Source: a virus (lineage: Duplodnaviria; Heunggongvirae; Uroviricota; Caudoviricetes). Taken from it: 37,741 nucleotides of DNA. Of this stretch, positions 1-37,741 are shown in pieces (position 1 is the first letter of the stretch; each line of letters starts with the position of its first letter). The stretch lies in the IMG/VR virus record IMGVR_UViG_2541047834_000001; one strand, written 5' to 3'. Under the pieces are notes generated by a model that saw nothing but the letters and a program-made list of their open reading frames with translations, did no database searches and was not told where the DNA came from. The position numbers and the translations under genes were made by a program.

Positions 1-17
1 ATTGAGTGGGAATGATT
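1..17. repeat. attL core: 17-bp direct repeat ATTGAGTGGGAATGATT, identical to 37725-37741
   Basis: Exact 17/17 identity between the first and last 17 nt of the window; integrase gene lies immediately inside. Confidence 0.8.
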
Positions 18-207: not shown

Positions 208-1458
208 GTGCTTACCGATACAAAATTAAAGAACCTCAAGCCACAGGACAAACTGTACAAAGTTTCCGATCGTGACGGGCTGTATGTAGCTGTGCTTACG
301 TCAGGTACGGTCTCGTTTCGCTATGACTACCGTATCAACGGTCGCCGCGAAACACTGGTAATCGGGCAGTATGGGCGTGACGGTATCAGCCTGGCAGAAG
401 CGCGAGAAGAACTGATTGCTGCAAAGAAGCTGCTTAAAGCAGGCCAGTCACCGGCTGCGGCTAAACGTGACGGTATCAAAAAGATTCGTGGTGCCGAGAC
501 GTTTGCGGTACATACCGACAGTTATATGAAACACGTCATCCTGGCTGACAGTACCCGCGCAATGAAACAGGCGGTGATCGACCGTGACATACTTCCGACT
601 CTTGGCAATAAAATGATGGCTGAAATTACCACATCGATGGTTCGTGATTTGTGTGACCGGATTGTCGAACGCGGTGGCCGGGCAACAGCAGTGCAGGCCA
701 GGGAGATCATCAGTAGCGTATACCGTCACGCCAATGACCGTGGTCATGGTTTGTTTAATCCTGCGGCTGACATTAAACCTTCGTCTATCGCCATATTTAA
801 ACCACGAGAGCGAACACTGACACCAGAAGAAATTGGCCTGTTCTTCCGCACGCTGGATGCCATTGGTGCTATGGGCACTATGAAAATGGCTTTAAAACTG
901 GTGCTTATCACTATGGTTCGTAAGGGCGAATTCACCAATGCAACGTGGGATGAAATAGATTTTAAAAAATGGACATGGACAATTCCTCCAGACCGCATGA
1001 AGGGAAGCCGGGCGCACGTTATTTACCTGCCTAAACAGGCACAGGATATATTGGTCGGGTTGCAGATGTGCGCTGGTGGAAGTGAATATCTGGTTCCTGG
1101 TCGTTACAATTTCCGGAAGCCATTATCTAATGCCGCGCTAAACTCTCTGATCGACAGAACGGTGAAAATAATAAATGAAGATGGTGAGCATATTCAGGAC
1201 TTCACTGTACATGATATGCGCCGTACAGCCAGTACGTTGTTGCATGAGGCTGGTTATCCTTCAGACTGGATTGAAAAGGCTCTGGCACATGAGCAGAAAG
1301 GTGTGCGCGCCGTATATAACAAAGCGGAATACGCCAGACAGCGCGCCTACATGTTGCAGCAGTGGGCCGATATGATTGATTCATGGATTGACGGGGAGCA
1401 TACGGATCTGATTCCGTTCTCCCCGTCGAAGTTTGAGAAGTGGATGGCGGGGGAATAA
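208..1458 (+). CDS. int: Tyrosine site-specific integrase (P4-type phage integrase family)
   Basis: 416-aa ORF next to attL; N-terminal arm-binding-like region (YVAV..FRYDYRINGRRE) and C-terminal catalytic region with HDMRRT (HxxR) and RAVYNKAEY (Tyr nucleophile region). Confidence 0.9.
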   Translation: MLTDTKLKNLKPQDKLYKVSDRDGLYVAVLTSGTVSFRYDYRINGRRETLVIGQYGRDGISLAEAREELIAAKKLLKAGQSPAAAKRDGIKKIRGAETFAVHTDSYMKHVILADSTRAMKQAVIDRDILPTLGNKMMAEITTSMVRDLCDRIVERGGRATAVQAREIISSVYRHANDRGHGLFNPAADIKPSSIAIFKPRERTLTPEEIGLFFRTLDAIGAMGTMKMALKLVLITMVRKGEFTNATWDEIDFKKWTWTIPPDRMKGSRAHVIYLPKQAQDILVGLQMCAGGSEYLVPGRYNFRKPLSNAALNSLIDRTVKIINEDGEHIQDFTVHDMRRTASTLLHEAGYPSDWIEKALAHEQKGVRAVYNKAEYARQRAYMLQQWADMIDSWIDGEHTDLIPFSPSKFEKWMAGE

Positions 1459-3002: not shown

Positions 3003-3884
3003 TTACATAGATGTTTCGTTTAATTCTTCCCGACGAACGCTGTAAACGTCGGTGGCTTTTGCCAGCAGTTCGTCATCATCTGAAAGTTTTTGTGCAATGT
3101 ATTTGTAAGCCTTATCCAGTTCGGAGACAGTGCTGTAATTCATCGCTGCGCTGGTAAAGGCCATCAGCATTTCTTCTGGATCACGGCTATCCGCTTTACG
3201 AGTTTGCTCATCAGGCTTTTTCACTGGTTTAGCGTTGATCAGACTGTTCATTCCCGCAGCAGTAGTTGTTTGCGGAGTAATGTCTCGCTCAACGCGCGGT
3301 GCCGTTTCCTGTAATTCGTCAGGGGTATAAACACCGAGAAGCACATCAGGAGCGTGCAGGCGAGCCCATCGTTTCGTGCAAAGATAGGCAAGCTGCTGGC
3401 GCGGATCCTGTTCCCACAATGGAGAGTTACGCACTCCGGCTTGCGCCATACTGATGGTAAGCTCACGGGGTTCTGCTTCTCCTTTAAGAACTGCTGACAC
3501 AGTTACCGTCAGATTCGGTGATTTATCTGTTTTGCCGTTAACATTCGACCAGTCACCGCTCCAGCGATAATTCAGGCGTGTCGCTAGCAGGCTGGAAGAG
3601 GATACGACCGCGTTTACCAACTGTGCTTCGTAGCCTAACTTTCCGTTTACCACATGCGTTTTCTGCGCCACGGCGAAAGGGTTCATTCCCCACTGTGCCG
3701 CCTGCATGGTCACCGCCAGACAATCGGCAGGTTTGCCTTCAAGATGTTCCGGTACAGTCGCTTTGCTTTGTGACATCAACTCCGCGAAACGCACCAGTTG
3801 ATTCATGCCCTCCGGGCTGAAGATTGCCGCAGCAGTACCTACAGTTGCGCCTGGTTGTGATGTGATTGCGATATCATTGCTCAT
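3003..3884 (-). CDS. Single-strand annealing recombinase, lambda Bet (Red-beta)-like
   Basis: 293 aa; AAQWGMNPF...NGKLGYEAQLV and ERDITP resemble lambda Bet; start overlaps upstream exonuclease stop (ATGA). Confidence 0.7.
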   Translation of the reverse strand: MSNDIAITSQPGATVGTAAAIFSPEGMNQLVRFAELMSQSKATVPEHLEGKPADCLAVTMQAAQWGMNPFAVAQKTHVVNGKLGYEAQLVNAVVSSSSLLATRLNYRWSGDWSNVNGKTDKSPNLTVTVSAVLKGEAEPRELTISMAQAGVRNSPLWEQDPRQQLAYLCTKRWARLHAPDVLLGVYTPDELQETAPRVERDITPQTTTAAGMNSLINAKPVKKPDEQTRKADSRDPEEMLMAFTSAAMNYSTVSELDKAYKYIAQKLSDDDELLAKATDVYSVRREELNETSM

Positions 3885-4702
3885 ACGTACATATCCTGTT
3901 TACGTGCCCAGTCAGGGCGTTTAATAATTTCCACTCCGCCCCACTCATCGTTGATGCGGCATTCGTGATAGGTATTCAGATCCCGGCGGAACAGATCGTG
4001 ACCGGCATCGACATCCGGCGCATCCAGCTCGAACACGCGTACCGGATACCGACCACAATCAATGCTTTCGCTCACGGCAAGAAAGAAAAAACCATGCGGC
4101 TGACCAGTAACCCTCATTGCGCCTTCGCGGTACATTGCGTCCTGCACGTGGTAGCGGAATTCCTCGATGTGGCGTGCAAAACGGTCCATATCTGCAACCT
4201 TTTTCACGTCGACGATCACGTTGTGCTCGTTCAGCCATTTGTCTGGACGAATGCGGCACAACTCACCAGTCTCTTCATCGTTCCAGTACATTGATGCTTC
4301 GCAGTAACCAGGTGCTTCCAGCATCCAGCGTGCCGCCGGGTGAGCCATTGCGCTATCACGCATCAGCTCCAGTTTCCGCCACTGCTCGGCATCAAGTACC
4401 GTAATCCCCATATCCGCTACATCACGAAGAAATGCCTCTTCGTCAGCTTTACCTTGTTTTGTCCGACGATCGAATTTCGGTGAAACGATGAAGCGTTTGT
4501 CAAACTCTCCAGGTTCCAGAAGCAGACAGTGCAGAGCAGTACCCATGTCCAGTGCAGACTTCTTCTCTTCGTCTTCCGGAGCAGCCTTCACCCATTTCAG
4601 AAGGGCAGGGTTCTTAGCCACCATATCTAGCTGCGACTTACTCACGCCGTCACCGGCGTGGTAGTCCTCGTTGCTGATATCGAAATAAATTCCCGGATTC
4701 AT
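3881..4702 (-). CDS. Putative recombination exonuclease (partner of the Bet-like annealase)
   Basis: 273-aa ORF translationally coupled immediately upstream of the bet-like gene; exo-annealase pairing is the standard arrangement; nuclease fold not verified. Confidence 0.6.
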   Translation of the reverse strand: MNPGIYFDISNEDYHAGDGVSKSQLDMVAKNPALLKWVKAAPEDEEKKSALDMGTALHCLLLEPGEFDKRFIVSPKFDRRTKQGKADEEAFLRDVADMGITVLDAEQWRKLELMRDSAMAHPAARWMLEAPGYCEASMYWNDEETGELCRIRPDKWLNEHNVIVDVKKVADMDRFARHIEEFRYHVQDAMYREGAMRVTGQPHGFFFLAVSESIDCGRYPVRVFELDAPDVDAGHDLFRRDLNTYHECRINDEWGGVEIIKRPDWARKQDMYV

Positions 4703-5172: not shown

Positions 5173-5187
5173 TTACCGTTGAGGTAA
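5173..5187. promoter_or_regulatory. Operator-like palindrome TTACC-GTTGA-GGTAA (leftward early promoter region)
   Basis: Perfect half-sites; adjacent extra TTACC at 5160. Confidence 0.5.
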
Positions 5188-5249: not shown

Positions 5250-5261
5250 TTGCGCAGGCAA

Positions 5262-5286
5262 TAAAAAAGCCGCCAGAAGGCGGCTT
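5262..5286 (-). terminator. Rho-independent terminator downstream of the repressor gene
   Basis: GCCGCC-TTCT-GGCGGC hairpin followed by TTTTTT on the minus strand. Confidence 0.6.
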
Positions 5287-5306
5287 ACTTACTGAAAAAT
5301 ATGATT

Positions 5307-5891
5307 TTATTGTTTGTTTTTTTCGTTCTGGTTGATGACAAATTCAATGTAACTTTCGATCTTTGCTTTCTCGGTTTCGGGTAACAATGCGTAGCGCGAG
5401 CGGTCATAGTTGATGGTCGCAGGGTCGTGCGGGTGAATCAGTAATTCATAGCCGTGACGCCCGAATGCGGATGCAACATTCTCCAGGGTGGAAATGGAAA
5501 CGCTGACCTCATTGTTTAACAGGCGGCTGATTGTCACCTGGGCGACGCCGGATGCGCGGTGAAGTTTTCCCTGTGTTGAAAGGTCGCGGCTTTCGCTCAT
5601 CCAGCGTTCCAGGTTGTGAGCCGCCAGCTGACCAATGTCGCTTGGGCCGACAGGCTGAAAACCTTCCTGAGAAAGCGAGCGATCGATATCAAGCCAGTTA
5701 CGGGGTTTATTGGCGGCAGCTTCAATTTTTCGCGCAACCTGGTCGCCGATAACCTTCTTGCCAAGAGCCCAGCGGTTTACCAGATTTGCCTGAGTTCCAA
5801 GTTTTTCTGCCATCCGCGTCTGAACACCATTGAATTCACGGTCGATCAAGTCGTTGAGATTTTGCCTGCGGACGTCCTGGATACTTTTCAT
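5307..5891 (-). CDS. Putative immunity repressor with two HTH (XRE-like) domains
   Basis: 194 aa; two helix-turn-helix-like segments (TRMAEKLGTQANLVNRWALGKK and ASGVAQVTISRLLNNEVSVSISTLENVA); divergent from a Cro-like gene across an operator-rich intergenic region. Confidence 0.65.
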   Translation of the reverse strand: MKSIQDVRRQNLNDLIDREFNGVQTRMAEKLGTQANLVNRWALGKKVIGDQVARKIEAAANKPRNWLDIDRSLSQEGFQPVGPSDIGQLAAHNLERWMSESRDLSTQGKLHRASGVAQVTISRLLNNEVSVSISTLENVASAFGRHGYELLIHPHDPATINYDRSRYALLPETEKAKIESYIEFVINQNEKNKQ

Positions 5892-5946: not shown

Positions 5947-5999
5947 TTACCCAACAGGTAAATGCACCCCATAGGTAACTATCCTTGATTTTTGTTACC
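5947..5999. promoter_or_regulatory. Divergent promoter/operator region between repressor and cro-like gene
   Basis: TTACC-CAACA-GGTAA (5947-5961) plus inverted repeat CCCATAGGTAAC / GTTACCTTATGGG (5969-6006). Confidence 0.5.
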
Positions 6000-6045
6000 T
6001 TATGGGTGAATATTTATTATCTGAAATAAATATCAGGCAATAGCT

Positions 6046-6276
6046 ATGAGCGATAACGGACATTTCGATTTCAAAAAGCACTGGCTTGCACTTACTCCGG
6101 ATGAGCGTGAAGCCTTCGCACAGGAAGCCGGAACGACGAGTCATTATATCCAGACTCACTTAACAGGTAAGCGCAAAATGCCAGGTAAAGTATTGATGAA
6201 TGGGCTTTTTAAAGCCTGTAAAACAAGACAATGGTTGCGCTCAAAAGCAGAACTGGCATACTTCTTCTACTCATGA
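6046..6276 (+). CDS. Cro / YdaS-like HTH regulator
   Basis: 76 aa; TSHYIQTHLTGKRKMPGKVL resembles the Cro/YdaS family; divergent to the repressor. Confidence 0.65.
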   Translation: MSDNGHFDFKKHWLALTPDEREAFAQEAGTTSHYIQTHLTGKRKMPGKVLMNGLFKACKTRQWLRSKAELAYFFYS

Positions 6277-15483: not shown

Positions 15484-15681
15484 AATCTCACCTTAAAAAA
15501 ATGCCCGGCGAACCGGGCGAACTGGAAGCAATGAGTTATGCCTTCCGTGGCTGTACGGGTTTACAGCATGAAGTCATCGCAATGGCGTCCTGCTGTAAAA
15601 AGGGCGGTGATAGTCCTTCAAGGGAAACTATCACCGCCAAGCACCTGGAACTTCTGGCATCACGGTCCTTAGGCGTGATTC

Positions 15682-19083: not shown

Positions 19084-20076
19084 ATGACAATGGCTGTTAA
19101 AGGCTTAACTGCGCTAACGCTGGCTGACTGGGGTAAGCGCGTCGATCCAAATGGGAAAGTCGATAAGATTATCGAGCTTCTCAATCAAACTAACCCAATT
19201 CTTCAGGATATGCCTTTTGTTGAAGGAAACCTTCCTACCGGACACCGAACCACCATTCGTTCTGGTTTACCTTCTGCTACCTGGCGTTTGCTGAACTATG
19301 GCGTACAGCCAAGCAAATCAACCACGGTGCAGGTCACCGATTCCGTTGGCATGCTGGAAACCTATGCTGAAGTCGATAAGTCACTGGCTGATCTGAACGG
19401 CAATACCGCCGAATTCCGCCTGTCTGAAGACCGCGCATTTATTGAAGCGATGAATCAGCAGATGGCGCAGACGCTGTTTTATGGTGATTCCAGCGTTAAC
19501 CCTCAGCAGTTTATGGGACTGTCCTCCCGCTATTCCAGCCTGTCTGCGGGTAATGCTCAGAACATCATTGATGCTGGTGGCACGGGTACAGATAACACCT
19601 CAATCTGGTTAGTGGTGTGGGGCGAAAACACCGTGCATGGCATCTTCCCGAAAGGGCAGAAGGCTGGCATCCAGATGGAAGATAAAGGCCAGGTGACACT
19701 GGAAGATGCTAATGGCGGCAAGTACGAAGGCTATCGCACCCATTACAAATGGGATAACGGACTTGCTCTGCGTGACTGGCGTTATGTTGTTCGCATTGCA
19801 AACATCGATGTCAGCAATCTTTCAGAACCTTCCTCTGCCGCAAATATTGCGAAGTTGATGGTTAAAGCACTGCATCGCATTCCGAACCGTGGCATGGGGC
19901 GCCCGGTGTTCTACATGAACCGCACTGTAGGCCAGGCTCTTGATTTGCAGTCTCTGGAGAAAACATCTCTGGCGATCAGCGTAAAAGAGACTGAAGGCGA
20001 GTGGTGGACGTCATTCCGTGGTGTACCAATCCGTGAAACTGATGCGCTTCTGGAAACAGAAGCCCGCGTGGTGTAA
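19084..20076 (+). CDS. Major capsid protein
   Basis: 330 aa immediately after scaffold gene, followed downstream by a strong terminator; AGAGAGGA RBS. Confidence 0.75.
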   Translation: MTMAVKGLTALTLADWGKRVDPNGKVDKIIELLNQTNPILQDMPFVEGNLPTGHRTTIRSGLPSATWRLLNYGVQPSKSTTVQVTDSVGMLETYAEVDKSLADLNGNTAEFRLSEDRAFIEAMNQQMAQTLFYGDSSVNPQQFMGLSSRYSSLSAGNAQNIIDAGGTGTDNTSIWLVVWGENTVHGIFPKGQKAGIQMEDKGQVTLEDANGGKYEGYRTHYKWDNGLALRDWRYVVRIANIDVSNLSEPSSAANIAKLMVKALHRIPNRGMGRPVFYMNRTVGQALDLQSLEKTSLAISVKETEGEWWTSFRGVPIRETDALLETEARVV

Positions 20077-20127
20077 CGCCTGTTATTAACCTGTGGGTCG
20101 TAACAGACCCACTAATGGAGAAAGAAG

Positions 20128-20565
20128 ATGATCACCGACAAACTGTTGATGTTCTCCGAAGCACAGGCGGTAACTGATACCGCGGCTTCTACTGACGTAA
20201 TCGATCTCGGTCCAATTGACGGAAAACGTCGTGATATCGGCGTGGGTTACCCGCTTGAGTTTTGGGCGCTGGTTAACACAGCCGCCGCAGCAAGCGGTGA
20301 TGCAACTGTAAACATCCAGTTGCAGACGAGTGAGGATAACAGCTCATGGACCACTATTTATGATAGTGGTGCACTGGCAAAGACCACCCTGACAGCAGGT
20401 AAACGAGTTGTTTCTGCAAAGGTGCCTGCCGGTGTTCAGCGATATCTGCGTGTTAACTACTCCGTCGCAACTGGCCCACTAACGGCTGGCGAATTCACTG
20501 CTGGTATCAGTCTTGATGTTGATGCCAATACGCCGTATCCGATCCGCTCAAAAGTAACTGGTTAA
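20128..20565 (+). CDS. Hypothetical structural protein (145 aa), possible capsid decoration protein
   Basis: GGAGA RBS; Thr/Ala/Gly-rich beta-type composition. Confidence 0.55.
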   Translation: MITDKLLMFSEAQAVTDTAASTDVIDLGPIDGKRRDIGVGYPLEFWALVNTAAAASGDATVNIQLQTSEDNSSWTTIYDSGALAKTTLTAGKRVVSAKVPAGVQRYLRVNYSVATGPLTAGEFTAGISLDVDANTPYPIRSKVTG

Positions 20566-32171: not shown

Positions 32172-32345
32172 GTGTTTTTAATTATTTTGAGTGTGATAAT
32201 TTCTGGTGGATTGTTATTTATTGACCGCTACAAATATTTTCTTAACCCTCAGACTCAAGCTATTTGCTGGTTCATCTTTGTTGTGCAGGGAGTAGTTCTT
32301 GTTGCAAGCCTTATTGAGGGGAGGCCTCTTATTTTTACTGGGTAA
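32172..32345 (+). CDS. Small hydrophobic membrane protein (57 aa), AT-rich moron
   Basis: GTG start 4 nt after AAGGAAG; VFLIILSVIISGGLLFIDRYKYFLNPQTQAICWFIFVVQGVVLVASLIEGRPLIFTG; about 30% GC; not in ORF track (size cutoff). Confidence 0.4.
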   Translation: MFLIILSVIISGGLLFIDRYKYFLNPQTQAICWFIFVVQGVVLVASLIEGRPLIFTG

Positions 32346-32357
32346 ATAGGTGACTAC

Positions 32358-32654
32358 ATGCAAGCTATAGGATTCATTGTTTATATCGTCGTTGGTCTTT
32401 TTCAGTTGGCAGCAATTATGGCTGGGCTTGAATCATGGTGGGGATTGCACTGGATAATTGCAGCCCCCATTGCTTTCATCGTGAGCTATATTCCATTTGT
32501 TGGAGCGATTGTTGGTATGGTTGGCGCTGTGGATGTATGGCGGTGGGAGTGGTGGCAGGCTGGCCTTCTCTTCTTTGGTGGGATCATCTTTGCTATTGTC
32601 TGCGGTGGAATGTCATCATTTTTCGAATGGCTATCATTCAGAAAAGGGACGTGA
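32358..32654 (+). CDS. Trp-rich integral membrane protein (98 aa, about 3 TM)
   Basis: Hydrophobic segments; stop embedded in GTGACATGTCAC palindrome; followed by terminator. Confidence 0.55.
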   Translation: MQAIGFIVYIVVGLFQLAAIMAGLESWWGLHWIIAAPIAFIVSYIPFVGAIVGMVGAVDVWRWEWWQAGLLFFGGIIFAIVCGGMSSFFEWLSFRKGT

Positions 32655-32662: not shown

Positions 32663-32663
32663 A

Positions 32664-32688
32664 GGCCGCTTTCGCGGCCTTTAAATTT
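32664..32688 (+). terminator. Terminator hairpin GGCCGC-TTTC-GCGGCC + TTTAAATTT
   Basis: Perfect 6-bp GC stem with T-rich tail; between convergent genes. Confidence 0.55.
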
Positions 32689-32962
32689 ACCGGGTTTGTT
32701 TTCGTAATTGTTCGGCACAATAGTCGAGATGTGTTTGCAGATCCTGCATAGACATCTGTGAGCTGGTGACATAGTTAATCAGTGCAGTCAGTTCGGCAAG
32801 TGGGCCATCGACATTAAATCCATCCTTATCGAGATCCCGGAGTAATTTCATCAAGTGCGATCCCTCCACCAGTGACCTGACGCCTCCCGGCGTGTGAATC
32901 CTTTCGGTAAATCCGTCTTCCAGTGGATAGTGATACTGCTGCATCTTATCTTCTCCATGCAA
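32687..32962 (-). CDS. Hypothetical soluble protein (91 aa), reverse-oriented moron with own promoter region
   Basis: Only minus-strand gene in the structural module; upstream intergenic 32963-33139 contains an ATTACC-N5-GGTAAT site. Confidence 0.55.
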   Translation of the reverse strand: MHGEDKMQQYHYPLEDGFTERIHTPGGVRSLVEGSHLMKLLRDLDKDGFNVDGPLAELTALINYVTSSQMSMQDLQTHLDYCAEQLRKQTR

Positions 32963-33020
32963 TAACTGTATATTTATACAGTATCAAATAATTTGTTTGC
33001 TATCCAGCACGTTTTGCAAA

Positions 33021-33035
33021 TTACCCGAAAGGTAA
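33021..33035. promoter_or_regulatory. Operator-like palindrome ATTACC-CGAAA-GGTAAT between moron gene and tail fibre gene
   Basis: Perfect half-sites; followed at 33067 by TATGTGGTTTTTAA. Confidence 0.5.
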
Positions 33036-33139: not shown

Positions 33140-35329
33140 ATGACGGTCTCAACCGAAGTTGACCACAACGAATACACCGGTAACGGCGTTACGACATCAT
33201 TTCCGTATACCTTCCGTATTTTCAAAAAAACCGACCTGGTTGTTCAGGTGTCTGACCTGAACGGGAACGTAACAGAATTGGTTCTGGATACCGGTTATAA
33301 GGTAACTGGAGCGGGCACTTATAGTGGCGGTGAAGTGGTTCTCCCGTCGCCGCTTGCTGCTGGATGGCGAATTACGATAGAGCGTGTGCTTGATGTGGTG
33401 CAGGAGACTGATCTTCGCAATCAGGGAAAATTTTTCCCCGAAGTTCATGAGGATGCATTTGACTACCTGACGATGCTGATCCAGCGATGTTTCGGGTGGT
33501 TCAGACGTGCATTGATGAAACCATCTTTGCTTGCAAAATATTACGATGCAAAGCAAAACAGAATTTCTAACCTTGCAGATCCATCACTTGAGCAGGACGC
33601 TGTAAATAATCGCTCAATGCGTAATTATGTCGATGCTGCAATCGCCGGGGTTGTTGGTGGTTTTGGTTGGTTTATACCGTCAGGAAGCGGGGCAAGACAA
33701 CGAACATTTCAAAGCAAAATGAGGGATATAATTTCTCCTTGTGATTACGAAGATAATATTTTTATGATTAAGGAGTTGATATCCAAAGGCAAAAATGCCG
33801 CTGTTTTTAACTCATATTATACTTTTGTTATTACTGTTGGCGAATGGGGTGATTACCCTACACTCAAAGATGCAATCATTGCAGCCCAGTCAATGAGACC
33901 TATGTGGGATGGTGGTAATGCTTTCTGCGAAATAAGAATTAAGACCGGGCATATTATCAACTATCAAATTGAATTCAGTTCAGGTGTTGATTTGTCTTGG
34001 ATTAAAATAACATCAGAAGACTCAGTGGTTTTCTCTGACACTCGTTTGTTTACTAAAATCGTTAGAACGTATTACGAATACAAGTATTTATTTTACATTT
34101 GCGATGCAGCAAAAAGTCCTGTATTTGCTATTCAGATCGAAGAAAATAGAGATGATAGCGATGTTTGTGCATTTATTGTAACTCAAAAAGCTGAACTTAA
34201 TTTCTATCCGTATTCAGGTGCTCGAAAGTTCTACGTTGGAATTCATGGTAGTTTTGGTGCAAAAATTAGTGCATATCATACCGGATGTGCTCCTGATGAG
34301 GAAAGTGTTGCTGCATATATGCCAGAAGGGTATTACGTATGTGATTTTTCTTATAGCAGATACTCTTCCCTGCAACTGGTAAATAATGTCAAGGCATCAA
34401 TGCCTGTAAGCAAGTTTGAACGGTGCACAGAGAGTACGGTTGCGTCAGTTAATTGTATTTATAATGTTAAAGCAGATTTTCAGGGGTCAAGTGCAAGCTA
34501 TTGTTATATAGGATGGAATGTAAGAGATGGTTCAAATGTTAATATACGCGACCATAAAACTATACATTGCTCATATCGTGGATTAACCTGCATTCATACA
34601 GCATATGTTGATGCAAGACGACATGACGTTGAAGAAAGTGATGCAGAAACAAGTGGTAAAGTCCTTGAACCAAATATTGAAAAAGGTTTTTATGGATGTG
34701 CACTTGGTGTGCGTATTGATGGTGCGGGTTGCGTTGATGTTGCTGGTAATGATATGCGCAATTGTGGAACAGCCGTTAATGCAGACACTGGTGCTGTTAT
34801 TTCAGGAAAGGCTGTAGATATCTCAGGGGCTGAGCTGGGATTTGATTGCCATGCAGGAGCATCTGTTAATTTTCCAAGGCTATGGGGTACAGATATAAAA
34901 AAATTAATGCACCTCCAAGATGGTGTAAGGTTTAACTCTAATATTTGTCATGTATTTGGTGCAAATCCCACAAAAGATATTAGATGGATTGATGTAGAGA
35001 GATCTGAAGCTTCTTTTATGAATGCAACGCTGGATGCAGATTCAGGATTTATTGCCGACTGTGGTAGTAGGATAACCATTGAAGGAAGTAAAGTTAAAAA
35101 CCAAACAATAAGAAGTTTTTTTGGATCATATGTGGCTATAAATAATACTGTTGCTGACAGAACTTATTCAGATATAGCCGATGTTCCGCAGTTGACTATT
35201 AGTGGAGGATCTTTTATTTCTGCTACAGGATATTCTAATTCTGACTCCAGCCCTCTGAGGTTGAGCACAACACGAAATACACTTGGCGTTGGAGGAGCTA
35301 TATTTTCAACCAATGGGGAAGTTTCATGA
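33140..35329 (+). CDS. Tail fibre / tailspike protein (conserved N-terminal adaptor, variable AT-rich distal domain)
   Basis: 729 aa; N-terminus (NEYTGNGVTTSFPYTF...NRISNLADPSLEQDAVNNRSMRNY) resembles podovirus tail-fibre anchors; distal portion about 35% GC. Confidence 0.75.
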   Translation: MTVSTEVDHNEYTGNGVTTSFPYTFRIFKKTDLVVQVSDLNGNVTELVLDTGYKVTGAGTYSGGEVVLPSPLAAGWRITIERVLDVVQETDLRNQGKFFPEVHEDAFDYLTMLIQRCFGWFRRALMKPSLLAKYYDAKQNRISNLADPSLEQDAVNNRSMRNYVDAAIAGVVGGFGWFIPSGSGARQRTFQSKMRDIISPCDYEDNIFMIKELISKGKNAAVFNSYYTFVITVGEWGDYPTLKDAIIAAQSMRPMWDGGNAFCEIRIKTGHIINYQIEFSSGVDLSWIKITSEDSVVFSDTRLFTKIVRTYYEYKYLFYICDAAKSPVFAIQIEENRDDSDVCAFIVTQKAELNFYPYSGARKFYVGIHGSFGAKISAYHTGCAPDEESVAAYMPEGYYVCDFSYSRYSSLQLVNNVKASMPVSKFERCTESTVASVNCIYNVKADFQGSSASYCYIGWNVRDGSNVNIRDHKTIHCSYRGLTCIHTAYVDARRHDVEESDAETSGKVLEPNIEKGFYGCALGVRIDGAGCVDVAGNDMRNCGTAVNADTGAVISGKAVDISGAELGFDCHAGASVNFPRLWGTDIKKLMHLQDGVRFNSNICHVFGANPTKDIRWIDVERSEASFMNATLDADSGFIADCGSRITIEGSKVKNQTIRSFFGSYVAINNTVADRTYSDIADVPQLTISGGSFISATGYSNSDSSPLRLSTTRNTLGVGGAIFSTNGEVS

Positions 35330-37724: not shown

Positions 37725-37741
37725 ATTGAGTGGGAATGATT
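37725..37741. repeat. attR core: 17-bp direct repeat identical to 1-17
   Basis: Exact repeat at window end. Confidence 0.8.

Follow-up and report, generated by a model that had tools for sequence, protein, structure and literature searches.

The repressor locus and the prophage that carries it

The stretch of DNA analysed here (hereafter referred to as the window) is 37,741 nucleotides long, and contains a gene for an immunity repressor, rep, that is transcribed divergently from a Cro-like open reading frame (ORF). The features of the locus and of the distant region that turned out to be related to it are listed in Table 1. The Cro-like ORF is syntenic with SPC32H_042 and with epsilon15 gp39. 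On the other side of rep, the terminator-like hairpin lies at a place equivalent to that of an annotated rho-independent terminator in the phiV10 record.

Table 1. Positions of the features discussed in the text, in window coordinates.
Feature	Position	Strand	Location or evidence
P4-type integrase	208..1458
Operator-like palindrome TTACCGTTGAGGTAA	5173..5187	.	Downstream of rep, head of leftward early operon
Operator-like palindrome TTACCCTTAAGGTAA	5235..5249	.	Downstream of rep
Intrinsic-terminator-like hairpin AAGCCGCC-TTCT-GGCGGCTT, then T run	5260..5287	-	Directly after rep; read from the sequence
rep, 194-aa immunity repressor (SPC32H Rep family)	5307..5891	-	ATG start; 5D50_A match over residues 1-190
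Rep C-terminal tail, residues 151-194	5310..5441	-	5D50/5D4Z alignment reaching residue 190
Rep second HTH-like domain, residues 85-150	5442..5639	-	Pfam; 5D4Z_A match; AF2 helices
Rep N-terminal HTH domain, residues 1-70, presumed operator-binding	5682..5891	-	Pfam, PHROG, AF2 helices
Operator-like palindrome TTACCCAACAGGTAA	5947..5961	.	rep-cro intergenic; motif search
Weaker operator-like site GCACCCCATAGGTAA, 2 mismatches	5964..5978	.	rep-cro intergenic
Operator-like palindrome TTACCTTATGGGTGA, 1 mismatch	5995..6009	.	rep-cro intergenic; motif search
Cro-like 76-aa ORF, predicted	6046..6276	+	Divergent from rep; phrog_35 'transcriptional repressor', E 5.6e-13
GC-rich hairpin, likely bidirectional terminator	32663..32680	.	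Terminator scan; between convergent 98-aa membrane-protein ORF and ant
ant, 85-aa antirepressor homologue	32687..32944	-	5D50_E match; SPC32H Ant ~88% identity
Shine-Dalgarno GGAG	32953..32956	-	8 nt upstream of ant ATG; invariant in five-phage alignment
Putative LexA (SOS) box AACTGTATATTTATACAGTA	32964..32983	.	Pattern search; 18/20 consensus match; five-phage alignment
Operator-like palindrome TTACCCGAAAGGTAA	33021..33035	.	Between ant and tailspike gene

The att core ATTGAGTGGGAATGATT is present at position 1 of the window and again at 37725..37741, and the window is therefore an entire prophage, bounded by attL and attR. Judged from these ends, it is a complete phiV10/epsilon15-like (Uetakevirus) prophage, with the lysis genes at its right end. 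The immunity region has 96–98% DNA identity to Escherichia Uetakevirus phages, a group of epsilon15-like podophages that includes vB_EcoP_PAS61, phiV10 and phiv142-3 (97–98%). Rep itself does not differ in any residue from the repressors of phiV10 (PhiV10p40), vB_EcoP_ZX5 (ORF21), PAS61 and others (100% identity), and is 98.5% identical to that of TL-2011b. The phiV10 GenBank record describes PhiV10p40 as having 'two helix-turn-helix motifs (Pfam PF01381)' and as similar to the putative repressor epsilon15p38. The att core is common to this prophage and to phiV10, ZX5, PAS61 and TL-2011b; two products of phiV10, the Bro-N protein and the O-acetyltransferase (oac), are missing from the prophage, whose tailspike also differs from that of phiV10. 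In the ZX5 study, the same core was described as the attP of phiV10, epsilon15 and ZX5, and ZX5 was found to integrate at the 3′ end of guaA (PMC9782041). With this att core, the prophage in the window seems to occupy the guaA att site as well.

A search of the window for the palindrome TTACC-N5-GGTAA, with one mismatch allowed, yielded 12 sites where 0.53 would be expected, a number that was reached in 0 of 100 shuffles. The alternative spacing, TTACC-N6-GGTAA, was not found anywhere in the window, and N5 is the correct spacing. The sites at 5173 and 5235 follow closely on the terminator of rep and head the leftward early operon. On the ant strand, a conserved TTGCAA hexamer lies two bases away from the palindrome at 33021..33035. 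Apart from these and the sites between rep and cro, matches at 151, 6332, 8278, 8340, 12918, 12936 and 16079 are found close to where other transcription units start. The motif occurs at syntenic positions in SPC32H, phiV10 and epsilon15. In the epsilon15 GenBank record, the equivalent sites downstream of rep and near ant are annotated as 'protein_bind: repressor, lysogeny', and the repressor as 'HHpred: 5d50_A'. From the motif and its placement, we infer that Rep binds the TTACC-N5-GGTAA sites in this prophage.

One phage record labels the product of 5307..5891 a 'plasmid maintenance system antidote protein VapI', and there is a weak Pfam match to YdaS_toxin, which might suggest an accessory XRE-type regulator or an antitoxin rather than an immunity repressor. 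However, the gene is divergent from a Cro-like gene and has operator palindromes on both sides, no toxin ORF was noticed adjoining it, and its product has full-length homology to the functionally characterised Rep protein of SPC32H. Moreover, the identical protein from ZX5, ORF21, blocks lytic growth: when it was overexpressed, free phage was abolished, and the endolysin and holin transcripts were reduced by more than 99.9% (PMC9782041). We therefore consider a role other than that of the immunity repressor to be extremely improbable.

Domain structure of Rep and the absence of an S24 module

The Pfam family HTH_3 matches Rep in two separate stretches, with a whole-protein E of 1.2e-9 and the best stretch at residues 106–147. 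The second HTH-like domain is also matched by the Pfam families HTH_26 and LacI. At the other end of the protein, residues 21–61 match the Cro-like YdaS model with an E of 3e-4, which is under the Pfam cut-off, and the N-terminus matches the repressor PHROGs 5736 (E 2.8e-11) and 12107 (E 4.1e-10). Taken together, the two HTH_3 stretches and the N-terminal YdaS and PHROG matches indicate that both HTH segments are real.

An AlphaFold2 (AF2) model of Rep, made from an input alignment of 44 sequences and with a mean pLDDT of 70.5, is all-helical, with bundles at residues 4–59 and 85–148 and a short helical tail at residues 164–193. The N-terminal domain consists of helices 4–19, 24–31, 35–43 and 50–59, with pLDDT values of 80–90, and the second domain of helices 85–100, 107–114, 118–125 and 133–142, with pLDDT values for the domain of 62–78. 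The tail is the low-confidence part of the model (pLDDT 42–67). Although both domains are HTH folds, a BLASTP comparison of the two halves of Rep gave no significant similarity (best E 0.027, over 19 residues) and thus no support for a recent internal duplication.

When the AF2 model was compared to the PDB with Foldseek, all chains at E < 1e-3 belonged to either 5D50 or 5D4Z, crystal structures that are listed as 'Rep-Ant complex' and 'Repressor' and that come from a temperate phage of Salmonella. The source phage is SPC32H, whose annotated rep is the matching sequence. In sequence comparisons, phmmer aligned residues 1–190 of Rep with residues 2–197 of 5D50_A ('Repressor') with an E of 4e-42, while the C-terminal part, residues 89–190, matched 5D4Z_A with an E of 4e-20. 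Overall, Rep is 42% identical to SPC32H Rep (BLASTP E 2e-53); the N-terminal domain reaches 54%, the tail 48% and the second HTH domain 34%. The second HTH-like domain is the counterpart of the first part of the crystallised SPC32H fragment, Rep 92–198. According to PMC9986798, the C-terminal domain of SPC32H Rep is responsible for both tetramerisation and Ant binding. The tail of Rep is homologous to the SPC32H region with these roles, for which the names 'CAD' and TetDloop are in use.

No match to Peptidase_S24 (PF00717) was found in Rep by Pfam search, even at E ≤ 1, and the family was likewise found in 0 of 86 Rep homologues. There is no Ala-Gly or Cys-Gly dipeptide among the 194 residues of the protein. 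Rep thus lacks both of the defining features of the S24 autocleaving repressors that were tested, the S24 domain and the cleavage-site dipeptide. LexA, CI, UmuD and other S24 chains were also absent from the 50 best listed Foldseek matches in the PDB. About 45 residues remain after the second HTH, and these are predicted by AF2 to be helical, unlike the β fold of S24. The S24 fold comprises about 120 residues and is β-rich, so this part of Rep is too short to accommodate it.

The low confidence of the model over these last 45 residues provides the only opening for a divergent module that was missed by the profile searches and that would allow RecA-stimulated self-cleavage of Rep. Given the lack of the domain and of the dipeptide, the short and helical nature of the region, and the position of 5D50 and 5D4Z at the top of the structural matches, we regard the existence of such a module as barely credible. 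In the work of Kim and Ryu from 2013, the SPC32H repressor is also said to stay uncleaved during the SOS response. The original prediction had described a 194-residue protein divergent to cro, with two HTH segments and without a LexA/S24-type autocleavage domain or an Ala-Gly site. All of this was borne out: the ORF is exact, on the minus strand, both HTH segments were recovered in the Pfam matches and as helical bundles, and the Peptidase_S24 search that had been proposed as a check came back negative, in agreement with the homologues, the dipeptide search, the AF2 model and Foldseek.

The ant gene and its upstream region

The ORF at 32687..32944, in the same window and 27 kb away from rep, encodes a protein that matches chain E of PDB entry 5D50, 'Anti-repressor protein', with an E of 4e-47, and that is 88% identical to the Ant proteins of SPC32H and SPC32N, whose genes are annotated as ant. 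It is the sole Ant match within the window. The ATG at 32944 was favoured as the start codon over a TTG upstream, at 32962, and aligns with the annotated start of SPC32H ant. No Pfam family was found for Ant above the cut-off, including Bro-N or ANT/KilAC domains, while a partial match was obtained to the C-terminal end of phrog_1760, 'anti-repressor' (E 4.5e-7). Ant is 97.6–100% identical to the corresponding proteins of the Escherichia phages phiV10, vB_EcoP_ZX5, vB_EcoP_PAS61 and TL-2011b. The order of genes, with the virion-structural operon followed by ant on the opposite strand and then the tailspike gene, is shared with SPC32H and epsilon15, and the epsilon15 record has a terminator annotated at the place equivalent to the GC-rich hairpin at 32663..32680.

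The pattern CTGT-N8-ACAG, the core of a LexA box, has three matches in the window. One of these, CTGTATATTTATACAG at 32966..32981, is located 21 nt from the ATG of ant, and the complete box agrees with the consensus TACTGTATATATATACAGTA in 18 of 20 positions. At 15551 and 20091, the spacers are GC-rich and agreement with the consensus is limited to 12 and 9 of 20 positions, respectively; these two matches were rejected as LexA boxes. A CTG-N10-CAG sequence upstream of cro (6021..6036) was also rejected: it lacks the CTGT and ACAG arms, and no equivalent was found by reading the rep-cro region of SPC32H.

We aligned the region upstream of ant from the window with those of SPC32H, SPC32N, epsilon15 and Klebsiella phage BUCT711. 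The LexA box, the GGAG sequence and the upstream palindrome fall in the same alignment columns in all five phages. Within the box, one base separates SPC32N from SPC32H: a C in the CAG arm is changed to A. This is reportedly the very mutation that, in the 2013 work of Kim and Ryu, gave constitutive synthesis of Ant. By homology with SPC32H, host LexA would be expected to bind the box upstream of ant in this prophage as well.

A simple consensus promoter scan did not identify a –35/–10 pair for ant, and the position of the LexA box relative to the transcription start is therefore based on the alignment and on the SPC32H paper. By eye, the best, though tentative, candidate for the ant promoter is the conserved TTGCAA next to the operator, together with a weak –10 sequence seventeen bases further on.

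The suggestion in the original prediction that induction might depend on an antirepressor, and not on self-cleavage, is supported by the homology to SPC32H Rep. The accompanying statements, that there was no obvious antirepressor gene and that the induction route was open, did not survive: the recognisable ant gene and its near-consensus LexA box make the route predictable from the published SPC32H system. The box was recovered by the very search that had been proposed, for LexA boxes upstream of small ORFs, and lies directly upstream of ant.

We also weighed a different or additional trigger that would make the small Ant dispensable: a Bro-N antirepressor, competition by Cro when induction is spontaneous, or a COG2856/ImmA-type protease acting as a partner. 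A Bro-N protein is present in relatives of this prophage, and its overexpression decreased lysogeny by ZX5; the ZX5 study, which does not mention the small Ant, credits Bro-N as the antirepressor, and reports spontaneous phage release from ZX5 lysogens at around 1e7 PFU/mL (PMC9782041). In addition, the C-terminus of phiV10 Bro-N weakly resembles the N-terminal part of Ant. However, there is no Bro-N homologue in the window, where the sole tblastn signal was a short Ant-like stretch overlapping ant, and no ImmA-like metalloprotease ORF was noticed among the ORFs beside rep. The strong conservation of ant and of its LexA box is also hard to reconcile with a dispensable Ant. Such a trigger is thus very unlikely, if somewhat less so than self-cleavage of Rep.

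A predicted Rep/Ant switch and its known counterparts

The full-length homology of Rep to a repressor that was crystallised together with its antirepressor fits induction by way of Ant rather than by RecA-stimulated self-cleavage. An SPC32H-type Rep/Ant switch very probably explains how this prophage is induced. This reading draws on what was shown directly: Rep and Ant are homologous to their SPC32H counterparts, the domains of Rep are laid out in the same way, no S24 module is present, a LexA box lies upstream of ant, and the operator motif is both over-represented and syntenic. PMC9638917 describes SPC32H Rep on DNA as a tetramer, and tetrameric Ant as binding two Rep dimers, thereby breaking the tetramer; Ant acts on the C-terminal oligomerisation domain of the repressor, without competing for the DNA-binding surface. 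According to PMC7380047, which cites Kim and Ryu 2013, Ant is made once LexA has cleaved itself, and the repressor is then inhibited through protein-protein contact.

Transferred to the present prophage, tetramers of Rep would occupy the TTACC-N5-GGTAA operators that flank rep and head other operons, keeping the prophage silent, while host LexA on the SOS box upstream of the ant ribosome-binding site would keep ant off. Upon DNA damage, activation of RecA would lead to self-cleavage of LexA, transcription of ant and synthesis of Ant. Ant would then bind to the C-terminal domains of Rep, splitting the DNA-binding tetramer into dimers and causing Rep to leave its operators, with Rep itself remaining uncleaved throughout. 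By analogy with SPC32H, we infer non-cleavage of Rep, contact between Rep and Ant, and disassembly of the tetramer for this prophage; induction by DNA damage without repressor cleavage can be expected. Since Rep is only 42% identical to its SPC32H counterpart, and 34% in the second HTH domain, the contact with Ant could differ in detail.

Ant is considerably better conserved than Rep, with 88% identity to SPC32H, compared to 42% for Rep, and 84% compared to 42% for epsilon15. As Ant is conserved so far above Rep across the genus, a single Ant might be able to inactivate Reps that differ in sequence, and possibly in immunity, allowing cross-induction of epsilon15-like prophages in one cell or community. 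Separately, the operator at 33021..33035 abuts the ant promoter region, and Rep might therefore repress ant together with LexA. Both ideas are tentative, and we consider them more doubtful than probable. If true, the joint control of ant by Rep and LexA would lock the gene doubly, and the appearance of Ant would set off a positive feedback.

The discovery value of the locus is small, as the repressor is identical to those of published phages and the mechanism can be predicted from the crystallised homologous Rep-Ant complex. Its value lies in annotation: the ORF at 32687..32944 and its LexA box should be labelled as an SOS-controlled antirepressor. Of the E. coli Uetakevirus records that were found with Ant as the query, most annotate the small gene as 'hypothetical protein'. 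This leaves a small annotation gap, shared by the paper on ZX5, which has identical Rep and Ant proteins and credits Bro-N (PMC9782041).

The prophage shares several elements with lambda CI, LexA and P22 C2, including an N-terminal HTH of the Cro/C1 type, the divergent arrangement of rep and cro, and multiple palindromic operators. Those repressors combine an HTH with Peptidase_S24, whereas Rep lacks the S24 domain and the cleavage dipeptide, and a second HTH-like domain stands where they have the protease. A second comparison can be made with phage 186 Tum and the Salmonella prophages Gifsy and Fels-2. The SPC32H Ant is, by the account of Kim and Ryu, said to be structurally distinct from antirepressors of the Tum, Gifsy and Fels-2 type. 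The likeness is a functional one, as these systems follow the same logic of a non-cleavable repressor and a small, LexA-repressed antirepressor (PMC7380047; PMC3121763).

The closest counterpart is SPC32H itself, the Salmonella phage for which the Rep/Ant switch was originally reported (Kim and Ryu 2013, J Virol; Kim et al. 2016, PNAS). Its Rep has the same layout, consisting of an N-terminal HTH, a second HTH-like domain and a C-terminal tail, and rep is flanked by the same TTACC-N5-GGTAA palindrome; between rep and cro, SPC32H has two exact sites and one with a single mismatch, whereas the present prophage has two strong sites and a weak one. In SPC32H, as here, the structural operon and the tailspike gene enclose ant, which is on the opposite strand and has an aligned LexA box. 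The SPC32H Ant has 86 residues, compared to 85 in the present protein, which has a one-residue deletion near the N-terminus. The hosts differ, E. coli for this prophage and Salmonella for SPC32H. Every defining feature of the SPC32H Rep/Ant family that can be tested in sequence was found in the window, namely the Rep homology, the domain layout, the cognate ant gene and the LexA box. The switch predicted here would thus be an ordinary example of the already known SPC32H-type system.

Operator-like sites and extent of the prophage

Because both ends carry the att core ATTGAGTGGGAATGATT, the window represents an entire integrated prophage, extending from attL to attR. The same core serves as attP in phiV10, epsilon15 and ZX5, and ZX5 integrates at the 3' end of guaA (PMC9782041).

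Seven copies of the operator-like palindrome TTACC-N5-GGTAA, the presumed site of the repressor Rep, were found in the window beyond the immunity and ant regions. Most of them are intergenic and located where transcription units start, upstream of int, of ORFs in the replication module and of the portal operon. Two neighbouring sites, 12918 and 12936, fall inside terS, at the 5' end of its reading frame when the start is called at TTG 12872. The sites have syntenic counterparts in phiV10 and epsilon15. The pattern suggests that many operons are silenced directly by the repressor.

The stretch from the rightmost rep-cro operator to the ATG of cro contains a perfect inverted repeat of 9 bp, ATATTTATT-N6-AATAAATAT, for which reading of the SPC32H intergenic sequence revealed no counterpart. 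The repeat includes a CTG-N10-CAG motif (6021..6036), which was considered as a LexA box and fits poorly.

Features of the window and of phiV10
Feature	Position	Remarks
att core ATTGAGTGGGAATGATT	1..17 and 37725..37741	
TTACC-N5-GGTAA sites	151, 6332, 8278, 8340, 12918, 12936, 16079	
RecT-like gene	3003..3884	
RecE/exonuclease VIII-like gene	3881..4702	
Inverted repeat upstream of cro	6011..6036	perfect, 9 bp
Two small membrane-protein ORFs	32172..32654	57 aa and 98 aa
Tailspike	33140..35329	729 aa; no Pfam family
phiV10 Bro-N protein p23	phiV10 19646..20230	

Ant and Rep among relatives

When the proteins of the window were compared with phage records across Uetakevirus, Rep (5307..5891) was found to be much less conserved than the antirepressor Ant (32687..32944). 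Ant and Rep identities to the window were 88% and 42% in SPC32H, 84% and 42% in epsilon15, 63% and 45% in Klebsiella phage BUCT711, and 86% and 78% in Enterobacter phage Tyrion, respectively. With Ant conserved so far above Rep, a single Ant could act on divergent Reps.

The N-terminal part of Ant weakly resembles the last ≈40 residues of the phiV10 Bro-N protein p23 (tblastn E 0.001; matching stretch 32849..32971, minus strand). A further match of Ant, with E 4.5e-7, is to the C-terminal end of phrog_1760, "anti-repressor". Several relatives have two to three Ant-like places per genome. From these resemblances and the multiple Ant-like places, it seems that an Ant-like module also occurs fused to Bro-N domains; the window itself has no Bro-N gene.

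Comparison with phiV10

The RecT-like and RecE/exonuclease VIII-like genes are two separate, overlapping ORFs in the window, whereas the phiV10 record has a single fused RecE-RecT protein, p37. The O-acetyltransferase gene oac of phiV10 is missing from the window (no tblastn match), the tailspike is shorter than the annotated 875-aa tail fibre protein of phiV10, and the position of phiV10 p21–p23 is occupied by the two small membrane-protein ORFs, the larger of which matches phrog_3075. Together, these differences in oac, tailspike and small ORFs probably reflect an O-antigen specificity different from that of phiV10.
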